A stretch of DNA of 62,917 nt, the filler included, from Sluysia triapertura (Eukaryota), in the NCBI GenBank assembly GCA_046118255.1. It is 5 parts of 5 records of this genome, joined end to end, with 100 filler letters (N's around TTAATTAATTAA, not from the genome) between each part and the next. Parts side by side here need not be neighbours in the genome. Positions count along the whole stretch, not along the records: positions 14,682 to 28,635 come from JBJNIA010013201.1; 4 more parts are not named here. The stretch is one strand, 5' to 3'. Shown here in pieces: positions 21,922 to 24,200 of this stretch. Numbering within the stretch: position 1 is the first letter of the stretch; each line of letters starts with the position of its first letter. Position numbers and translations under genes: made by a program. The notes beneath the pieces were generated by a model. It had not been told where the DNA came from. It ran no database searches and worked only from the letters and a program-made list of their open reading frames with translations.

Positions 21922-24200
21922 TCAAAATTTATATGAAAAGTGGGCTCTACGCCTAATGAATAAATAGAACTTTGGGATAACAAAGTTAATTATTAATGTT
22001 ATTAAAGAAATTACCATTAAAATGTAATTGATAGTTGTGATGAAATTATTGTTGGATTTCATTATAGTTGGGCATTTAATATTTTCTTTACTTATATTCA
22101 TAATTATTTTCGCAGCATTCGAACTCATATTCATGTTCATGTTATAAAGCATATTCTTAAAATTGTCATTGATTTTAAGCGTTTTTTCTGATTTCGTTTC
22201 CGAATCATTTTCGTACTTATCTATAATTGGTACTTGTACATCATAATATCCGATTGTTGGCCAAAATCCTTTTCAATCATGTATTTCCGTTTTTCTTAAT
22301 ATCCAAAATTTAACAAACATGAGTTTAGTATTCGGAATATGATATAAGCGAATAGTATCGTTAGGTTACATCAATCCGTAACGATGACCGTTAATTAGTT
22401 CATAGGCAATCAATAATGTATTATTGTATAATGGATTATGAATACGTACAACATTTCCAAGATAAAGGCAGGTAGTCAATCGAAATTCAAGCGATGCTTA
22501 TGATTGTTTAGAAACAAATTATTTAGTTTTATCATCATATGTCGGTCATTGCCGAAAAACAAATGGCTTAGTTCTTATTTTATAGTATCATATTAGATTA
22601 ATCTTTGAGTCACTCTGATAATCATATTCCAATTTTATAGCCAACATTACATTGAATATTTGGTATTCAAGACGGTCACTACAAGATATAAACCAATAGA
22701 AATCTTGTTTACTTGCTCTTGTTTCGGTTTCACACCAATCCATTAAACAACATTTGATTTGAACGGAAAATAGTTTAATCTGTTAATATTTTAGCGAAAA
22801 TATCCTTTTGAGATGATACTAAAATTATTCTAGGCGTGATATTTTCTGACAAATAATTCGTACTTGATATACAAGATAAGTAGATACATATCAAGATTGT
22901 AAATTTTACTTGAGTCATTTGCCACTCTCCACATATAAGTGGTACTTGATTATTTGTAGCGTATTCGTAAATTGGAGGTGGAAGTATCGGCATACCCAGT
23001 GGAGGAGTGTACTTATTTCTATGTGGAATTGTATATGCATCGTCGTCATCATTGTAATTATAATGCGGTAAACAAAGATATTGACACCTATTTGATACAA
23101 ACATAACAATCGTTAATATTACTATATCAAGAGCAATTACGAACAATATTGCTGCTAATATTAATATTACTAATGCTGGATCATTCCGCAGTATTTCCAG
23201 TATCGTTAAATGTTTTCTTGTTCCTTTAAATGCAAAATGCAAATATTTTGATGAATGGCGAATTTTCACAATAATATGTCTATCCTCAATATGTAGTATG
23301 TCTGAACATATTGTGACTGAGTATCTCAAGTATTTGTTAATATAGTTTGCATATATAGTCCATTAACGAAAATTAAGTCTGGCAGGTTTTAAAGAGGCAA
23401 ATTTGGCATGAATGTTTAGATTCATTATTTTAACCTTTACTTCATTGTCTCTATTATAAAATTCAAAATGTTCTGTTTTAAAAGAATGCTTATGTCATTG
23501 AACTACCGTAATTATTGTAATTAAAATCAACGGTATAAGGTTTTTATTATTGGTAAGGACTCGTACTTTTCTACTGATTTGAAATAAATAAAGTATGGTC
23601 CAAAGTATATATAGTACCTTAAAAATTGGTAACATTAAAAAGAATTTATAAGAGTGTTCCGTTATCTTTTTGTAGTTTGATTGTTTAAACTGCCTATCTG
23701 TTTCTTAGTTGTATTATAATTGGACAAAGTTGTTGGTACTTTCGTCGTTTCTTTATTTTCTAATTGTTTTATCATTTTGATAAATTTCCAAATATCTCAT
23801 GTGTTTCTTTGAGTATCCAAAGAAAAAGTTATTAACATAGGTCTGTAACCACAATGCAGACTGGAATACTGTTTATATGATGTCGTTTCCCACTAGCAAT
23901 GGCATTAGATAGATATAATAAATTTCAAATTTGTGTAGTAAAATCATTTTCTTAGAAATAAATTCGAATTTCCAATATTGATTAAAATATTGGAAATCGT
24001 TATTTTCTGTTCTCTACCATGATTTATCGCAATATTCATATTTTTGTAGTCTTCATCCGCCTGTGTGGCTATAGCGTCGGTTATTAGTGATAAAAAAATT
24101 ATAACTAATACATAAGTTAATTTCTTAAAATAATTTTTATTGAAGCCATTTCCATTTTTTATATTGGTCATTATCATTACTATGTCTTGAGCTTCACTGC
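21922..24200 (-). pseudogene. Element A env-like polyprotein of tandem signal-peptide/ectodomain/TM modules
   Basis: Signal-like YVLVIIFLSLITDAIA, LIPLILITIITVVQ and FTILICIYLSCISS. TM-like FLMLPIFKVLYILWTILYLF, ALVILILAAILFVIALDIVILTIVMFV and YILMVISLITLIINFVI. Cytosolic PPPIY at 22967-22981. Confidence 0.65.

Follow-up and report, generated by a model that had tools for sequence, protein, structure and literature searches.

In Ty3/gypsy elements, the usual position of an envelope gene is 3' of pol (PMC13524379). Errantivirus envelopes fall into two architectures: the F-type ENV, with one large ectodomain between signal and transmembrane (TM) segment, a furin site and a fusion peptide, and the HSV/gB-type ENV, with five domains and conserved cysteine bridges (PMC13524379). 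The same survey of animal gypsy envelopes recovered F and gB types through baits drawn from F and gB sequences, and, as far as the excerpted methods go, it probably would not have recovered the type presented here (PMC13524379). In the Oikopleura Tor elements, Env is a glycoprotein that furin cleaves; its TM is C-terminal, and seven of its cysteines are conserved (PMC4402516, in excerpt). Membrane proteins other than classical env also occur, including the sORF2/FAST-like proteins of MDG1-group elements, which comprise 63-107 aa, an ectodomain of ~30 aa, an N-myristoylation motif and a single TM, and which serve cell-to-cell transfer of LTR elements (PMC11952523, in excerpt). In bdelloid rotifers, the gypsy-like Vesta, Juno and TelKA have additional ORFs behind pol, among them DEDDy exonucleases and small ORF3s with two TMs; according to the excerpted text, ORF3s that had been named env for no more than their TM and glycosylation motifs turned out to be enzymes, a warning that TM-based env assignments can mislead (PMC5408684). 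Planarian Burro/GYPSM1 elements carry ubiquitination- and apoptosis-related cargo (RING, MATH, SUMO-like), together with an F-like env region beside the protease, located between gag and pol in a 4,900-aa ORF (PMC6431247, in excerpt). Among viral membrane proteins involved in egress, bluetongue virus NS3, listed as membrane-associated (PMC6949946), carries a highly conserved PPxY late domain (PMC4452911; both sources in part).

The window analyzed here is a stretch of 62,917 nucleotides from Sluysia triapertura (GCA_046118255.1), composed of AT-rich animal DNA with a GC content of mostly 15-33%. The region under study, on the minus strand of the part derived from JBJNIA010013201.1, is the third gene of a dead Ty3/gypsy-type element that occurs in multiple copies in this genome and has lost its 5' part (copy A), and a second copy (copy B) lies further along the window (Table 1). 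The four gaps of the window (14582-14681, 28636-28735, 39690-39789 and 51326-51425) share the same form, with two runs of 44 N, and contiguity across them is not assured; the two gaps that were read contain an identical 12-base AT linker. Elsewhere, the window holds host exons of a cullin (12136-12630, minus strand, E 2e-38) and of a dynein heavy chain N2 region (6552-6917, plus strand, E 3e-8), as well as a 323-aa stop-free frame at 1282-2253 (plus strand) with an internal 114-nt repeat (1384-1504 / 1498-1618) and no convincing Pfam match. A decayed non-LTR retrotransposon, which we take to be NeSL-like, occupies 55900-60700 on the minus strand, with an RT and a C-terminal restriction-like endonuclease region recognized by eye; its N-terminal protease is Ulp1-like (Peptidase_C48, E 0.009, short of the cut-off).

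Table 1. Coordinates of the gypsy remnant and of the cassette that follows it, in positions of the window.
Feature	Position	Strand	Remarks
Copy A pol remnant: last RT motifs, RNase H, integrase	24767..26620	-	stops and frameshifts
Retropepsin-like domain	24454..24770	-	gypsy protease HMM; split by one frameshift and one stop
Linker, Ser/Thr/Pro-rich, in the frame joining protease C-terminal half to signal 1	24121..24453	-	ORF 23944-24507
Signal-like segment 1	24067-24120	-	basic n-region, hydrophobic core, A-x-A-type cleavage site
Ectodomain 1, ~140 aa, Thr-rich end	23645..24066	-	least certain unit
TM1, then short basic loop (~16 aa)	23576-23644	-	KD 2.0, weakest anchor; has Pro and Lys
Signal-like segment 2	23498-23539	-	stop at expected cleavage region
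Ectodomain 2, ~107 aa	23177..23494	-	one stop; strands in low-confidence model
TM2	23096-23176	-	KD 3.3; followed by two juxtamembrane cysteines
Predicted cytosolic loop, ~60-63 aa: acidic run, YxIP, Pro-rich patch with PPPIY	22919..23095	-	cytosolic side predicted
Signal-like segment 3	22862-22918	-	same frame as loop in A and B; Met at start kept in both
Ectodomain 3, ~277 aa, Cys-poor, N-glycosylation sequons, low-complexity stalk	22033..22861	-	
TM3 (21976-22032), short basic tail, stop	21922..22032	-	helix is the only confidently modelled part
Decayed RING-finger-like ORF, copy A	21390..21690	-	aligns with copy B, z 6.9, 0/200 shuffles
Decayed last ORF, copy A	19990..20900	-	A/B 21/51 identical, z 17
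Copy B: loop with PPPIC, signal 3, ectodomain 3, TM3	50340..51324	-	cut upstream by gap 51326-51425
Copy B: RING-like ORF (49720-49990) and exonuclease-like ORF (48400-49350)	48400..49990	-	order as in A

The pol remnant of copy A shows the order RT, RNase H, integrase that defines Ty3/gypsy (Metaviridae). RNase H matches Pfam PF17919 (E 3.8e-30), and the integrase comprises a zinc-binding part (PF17921, E 6.3e-6), a core that has lost an internal stretch (E 2.7e-18 in blastp against gypsy pol proteins) and a GPF-type C-terminal module. The nearest pol relatives are distant, with identities of 32-42% among 40 proteins and 35% over the full match in one search. RT ends at ~26620, where a kinase exon starts on the other strand, and no RT, gag or protease match was found further upstream in the window. 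Neither paired LTRs nor a PPT was found for copy A. Repeat depth drops to flank level near 18930-18960, with a single-copy contig ending at 18956, and a TG-starting stretch at 18939 could be the 3' end of the element. The kinase exon (26620-27050, plus strand, E 3e-57) is of the ALK2/ACVR1-like TGF-beta type I receptor type and directly adjoins the truncated RT; its catalytic-loop motif is altered, and the summed contig depth of ~130-470 over 26775-28258 exceeds that of the flank. A captured fragment present in multiple copies may therefore have broken the element here.

Six hydrophobic segments lie within 21922-24120 on the minus strand of copy A, in the order signal, anchor, repeated three times and distributed over three stop-poor frame blocks, all topology calls being based on hydropathy and inspection. 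Shuffling the residues of the three blocks yields a mean of 2.0 hydrophobic segments and reaches six in 12 of 2000 trials, and the same count returns none in three pol frame pieces, confirming the alternation of at least three signal-like and three TM-like segments that a first-pass annotation of this DNA had described. Stops are scarce in the blocks, which have 1 among 228, 3 among 308 and 8 among 293 codons, respectively; control windows (n=245) average 25.9 per 300 codons and never fall below 10. Plus-strand frames of the same stretch carry 4, 6 and 3 hydrophobic segments by the same rule; because frames of this AT-rich DNA are equally hydrophobic on that strand, the assignment of reading frames rests on stop density and A/B homology and not on hydrophobicity. 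Signals 1 and 3 end in small-residue, cleavage-type sites, and basic residues follow TM1 and TM3, as expected for the cytosolic side. TM1, signal 2 and TM2 share one frame. Ectodomain 1 is interrupted by frameshifts near 23984, 23772 and ~23665, placed by indels against other copies, with 1 stop in 70 and 0 in 36 codons in its best frames. Ectodomain 2 is probably beta-rich, judging from its model, and ectodomain 3 of copy A contains several stops, one frameshift near 22770 and six cysteines in its block.

As the gene is broken by stops and frameshifts, the polyprotein is a reconstruction and not a continuous reading. The third gene appears to start at about 24770, further upstream than 24200, giving about 950 codons in all. 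Its membrane architecture is well supported in the second half and moderately in the first. The layout agrees with the proposal of several type I membrane proteins released by signal peptidase as far as the alternation goes, but not with units 1 and 2 as plain type I proteins, since both would keep the following signal on their tails and would be better described as two-pass hairpins. The contrast with SU/TM env drawn in the same proposal is supported.

The second copy within the window covers only the loop, signal 3, ectodomain 3 and TM3, units 1 and 2 being represented by one broken copy. Loop and signal 3 align with 29/83 identical residues (z 16), and ectodomain 3 with TM3 at 62/205 (30%, z 13), with 0/500 shuffles as high in either case; loop and signal 3 occupy one frame in both copies. 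Past its gap, copy B shows no alignable counterpart of units 1-2 or of the protease-like domain, and a low-complexity, Ile-rich hydrophobic run at ~51680-51760 may be its TM2. The gene order is kept in A and B, although the copies are about 70% diverged.

Other copies were judged from the contigs of one public sequencing run, which contains this stretch and may itself be the source of the window; no RNA run with the stretch was listed, which says nothing about its expression. Summed contig depth, which is not a copy number, rises from about 20-27 in the flank to thousands over the gene, and as many as 71 contigs depart from copy A at a single position within it. Deletion derivatives exist, as shown by junctions in single contigs (23984 to 24868, and 21872 to 23955); these junctions also link the region, in other copies, to the integrase end and to the ORFs downstream. 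Among the 21 listed in-block places where nearly all other contigs differ, a small, tool-chosen subset from the 40 of 1,786 differences listed, four fall in 10 in-frame stops (P 1e-4) and two in off-frame stops, with 4.4 expected, indicating that those in-frame stops are private decay of a longer frame. Indels near 23984 and 23772, among the 12 of 155 listed, lie within the frame-ambiguous stretch. The gene is real and decayed, an orphan for a membrane precursor that occupies the env position of a multi-copy gypsy family.

The P-P-x-Y of copy A (22967-22978) lies between TM2 and signal 3. The first-pass annotation had located PPPIY at 22967-22981 and PPPIC at 51247-51261 in copy B correctly, with last codons one base apart, and had placed the motif in a predicted cytosolic loop; the position between TM2 and signal 3 holds, and the cytosolic side is a prediction. 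Conservation of PPxY, set beforehand as a test, failed, since the sole comparable copy has Cys in place of Tyr. Copy B is itself decayed, so this Cys may be a secondary loss. Six-frame translation of the window contains four PPxY, which means that the motif alone is not rare. A wider patch is conserved in the two copies (13/32 identical, no gaps): YxIP, then a run rich in Pro and a Tyr further downstream. This favours a cytosolic adaptor-binding loop, with a Nedd4 WW, an SH3 or an SH2 domain as possible partner. Late domains occur mostly in Gag or matrix proteins, and a true late-domain role of this PPxY is unlikely.

The first pass had missed what flanks the membrane segments in the cassette: upstream a retropepsin-like domain, downstream RING-like and exonuclease-like ORFs. 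A protease HMM built locally from 10 gypsy proteases finds its best matches in the window as two adjacent collinear pieces (HMM 5-41 and 40-101), which score 27.7 bits when read through with X; none of 24,846 equally built control joins exceeds 11.7 bits. Pfam gave no match on the separate pieces. The profile match covers the C-terminal hydrophobic-Gly-x-Asp motif, and the position of the catalytic Asp is kept within a surrounding motif that is non-canonical in copy A, be it by decay or as a trait of the family. The ATG at 24770 overlaps the pol stop, and the C-terminal half continues in frame, across one stop, through the Ser/Thr/Pro linker into signal 1.

Downstream, the RING piece of copy B matches zf-RING_2 with E 0.031, below the curated cut-off. 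The C-terminal half of the last ORF weakly resembles DEDD/DnaQ exonucleases, a lead only: its nearest Atlas clusters are exonucleases at 0.84-0.86, under the 0.9 lead threshold, and a DnaQ-like HMM run over 8,174 windows ranks B first (7.2 bits) and A second (5.5) against 4.5 for the next, a weak separation. No match to the last ORF was found in Pfam, PDB or PHROGs. Its N-terminal parts show no significant A/B alignment in the frames tried, and tblastx links them. Right after the exonuclease-like ORF of copy A, a Ser/Thr/Pro-rich frame with one stop spans 19590-19999 (minus strand); the His/Cys stretch that ends it might be a decayed zinc finger, and no clear counterpart of this frame was found in copy B.

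Homologue searches with the cassette were negative throughout. A word search of 5.8 billion proteins returned no homologue of the TM2-loop ORF (354 candidates) or of the protease-linker-signal block (786 candidates), at longer lengths only, and nothing above 0.81 was found for the TM2-loop ORF in the Atlas. No homologue of the cassette was found in viral or metagenome contigs, no match in the 33 loci found with RNase H, and no match to its proteins in Pfam, PHROGs or PDB. Ectodomain 3, run with HMMER against 1.84 billion representatives, had two matches, both to repeat proteins over 19-41 residues, which were rejected. Structure models reached a mean pLDDT of 33 and 54, the low-confidence folds reflecting a lack of alignment depth, and Foldseek against BFVD gave 0 matches at E 0.001, with models too poor to exclude a match. 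The envelope-like identity proposed in the first pass is accordingly left without a homologue in these searches. No description of this architecture was found in the literature covered, which comprised main texts mostly from outside the subscription journals and Repbase Reports.

Compared with the described systems, the locus resembles errantiviruses in that a Ty3/gypsy pol is accompanied, in the env position, by an ORF with signal and TM segments, in multiple copies and in an invertebrate-type genome, as far as the excerpts of PMC13524379 describe them. It differs from both ENV types in its three small, Cys-poor ectodomains and in the protease-like domain in front. An F-type (class I) ENV does not fit, given the lack of any R-x-K/R-R furin site in the three blocks and of any Pfam or PDB match. 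Nor does a gB-type (class III) ENV, in view of the size of the largest ectodomain (~277 aa), six cysteines in its block and no match, or a sORF2/FAST-like fusogen, in view of ectodomains of 107-277 aa, each behind a signal-like segment. Bunyavirus Gn/Gc and alphavirus C-E3-E2-6K-E1 precursors likewise use internal signals after cytosolic tails and signal-peptidase processing, with a leading protease in alphaviruses; their fusogens, however, are Cys-rich class II domains of over 400 aa, and the likeness is an analogy of layout only, given the smaller ectodomains, the few cysteines and no sequence similarity found here. Vesta, Juno and TelKA share the extra ORFs after pol but mostly carry one, of 210-600 aa, and the excerpted account describes no tandem signal-ectodomain-TM precursor, post-integrase protease or RING (PMC5408684). 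Burro shares the ubiquitination cargo and the proximity of env and protease, whereas the present cassette lies 3' of the integrase and has no F homology (PMC6431247, in excerpt). The Tor Env is unlike the present cassette (PMC4402516, in excerpt), and bluetongue NS3 keeps the PPxY that is absent from the only comparable copy here and shows no homology to it (PMC4452911).

About evenly balanced, in our assessment, is the reading that signal peptidase processes the product of the third gene into a surface or egress module whose type has so far gone unrecognised. It is favoured by the low stop density, the six segments against 2.0, the A/B homology, the private stops and the protease score, together with the env position 3' of pol (PMC13524379) and the NS3 precedent (PMC4452911), both as given in excerpt. 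Against it stand the lack of a supporting homologue or fold, the loss of PPxY in B, the derivation of units 1-2 from one copy, the weak TM1, the equal number of hydrophobic segments in opposite-strand frames, the small subset behind the stop test, and the case of the rotifer ORF3s (PMC5408684). Under this reading, a precursor of ~950 aa would start in the cytosol with its protease-like head, and three internal signals would thread three small ectodomains into the ER, host signal peptidase cutting after each. By analogy with bunyaviruses and alphaviruses, the products would be three membrane subunits, the first two retaining the following signal as a second anchor. The ~60-aa Pro/Tyr loop would remain cytosolic and bind host WW, SH3 or SH2 proteins, and the most likely role of the module would be to mark the membrane where capsids exit and to attach the particle or vesicle to a neighbouring cell, with the RING and the exonuclease as accessory host-interaction genes. 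Any fusion activity of a subunit would be putative.

The same polyprotein could instead supply accessory host-modulating membrane proteins that are not particle components, which we regard as rather improbable. Adenovirus E3 glycoproteins and EBV LMP2A are likenesses for such a role. The small ectodomains without fusogen hallmarks fit it, as do neighbouring ORFs that point to ubiquitin and nucleic-acid turnover. Under this reading, the Pro/Tyr loop would recruit Nedd4-type ligases or signalling adaptors, re-routing or degrading host surface proteins or the subunit itself, and would work with the RING-like and exonuclease-like ORFs as a counter-defence cassette. The Burro cargo offers a precedent (PMC6431247, in excerpt), but the env position, an apparent processing like that of a structural glycoprotein precursor and the absence of an evident host target argue against an accessory role. 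Concerning the protease alone, and compatible with the membrane architecture, it is possible, if on the doubtful side, that the protease-like domain is the element's only protease, relocated and expressed with pol (RT-RH-IN-PR) directly or by frameshift. Its frame is open ~14 codons upstream of the ATG and overlaps the pol end, and with the 5' part of the element missing an upstream protease cannot be shown; yet the junction is an ATG/stop overlap, no X XXY YYZ slippery heptamer was found in 24741-24900, and in other gypsies the protease lies upstream of RT/RNase H wherever it was detected (20/40 pol proteins, 13/33 loci).

The remaining alternatives are weaker. That the stretch holds two or three separate small membrane genes, with unit 3, for example, translated from its own Met behind an ordinary N-terminal signal peptide, seems quite unlikely. 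In its favour, both copies have a Met where signal 3 begins, and about three frameshifts lie on the way from protease to TM1 in the one copy that covers this part. Against it, TM2, loop and signal 3 follow one another in A without a stop, as do loop and signal 3 in B, and TM1, signal 2 and TM2 have a common frame. A captured host gene fragment, or an unrelated element nested beside the gypsy copy, is very unlikely. No gypsy with this cassette was found in the papers searched, and the host kinase exon at the other end of pol indicates that the locus was rearranged; nevertheless, the 30%-identical second copy keeps the gene order, a contig of another copy joins the integrase end to the gene, and the searches turned up no homologous host protein. 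Chance hydrophobicity in AT-rich dead DNA, to which the three to six plus-strand segments might lend credit, is scarcely tenable and already largely refuted for the second half by the stop depletion, the A/B protein homology with aligned signal 3 and TM3, and the stops private to copy A.

In its most far-reaching form, offered tentatively and judged less probable than not by some distance, the surface or egress module would be a third envelope class in Ty3/gypsy, neither F nor gB: a signal-peptidase-cut, multi-subunit glycoprotein complex whose precursor is headed by its own retropepsin and whose cytosolic Pro/Tyr loop recruits the budding or actin machinery of the host, with accessory genes for a RING ligase and an exonuclease behind it. 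If true, an invertebrate Metavirus would have a complex genome plan resembling that of retroviruses, possibly with a novel small fusogen fold or a novel order of pol domains. If the subunits are accessory, the cassette of membrane precursor, RING and exonuclease-like ORFs would still be unusual, with its order kept across copies ~70% diverged. A multi-subunit membrane precursor together with a post-integrase protease would widen the known uses of membranes by retrotransposons, and would provide a bait for finding more.
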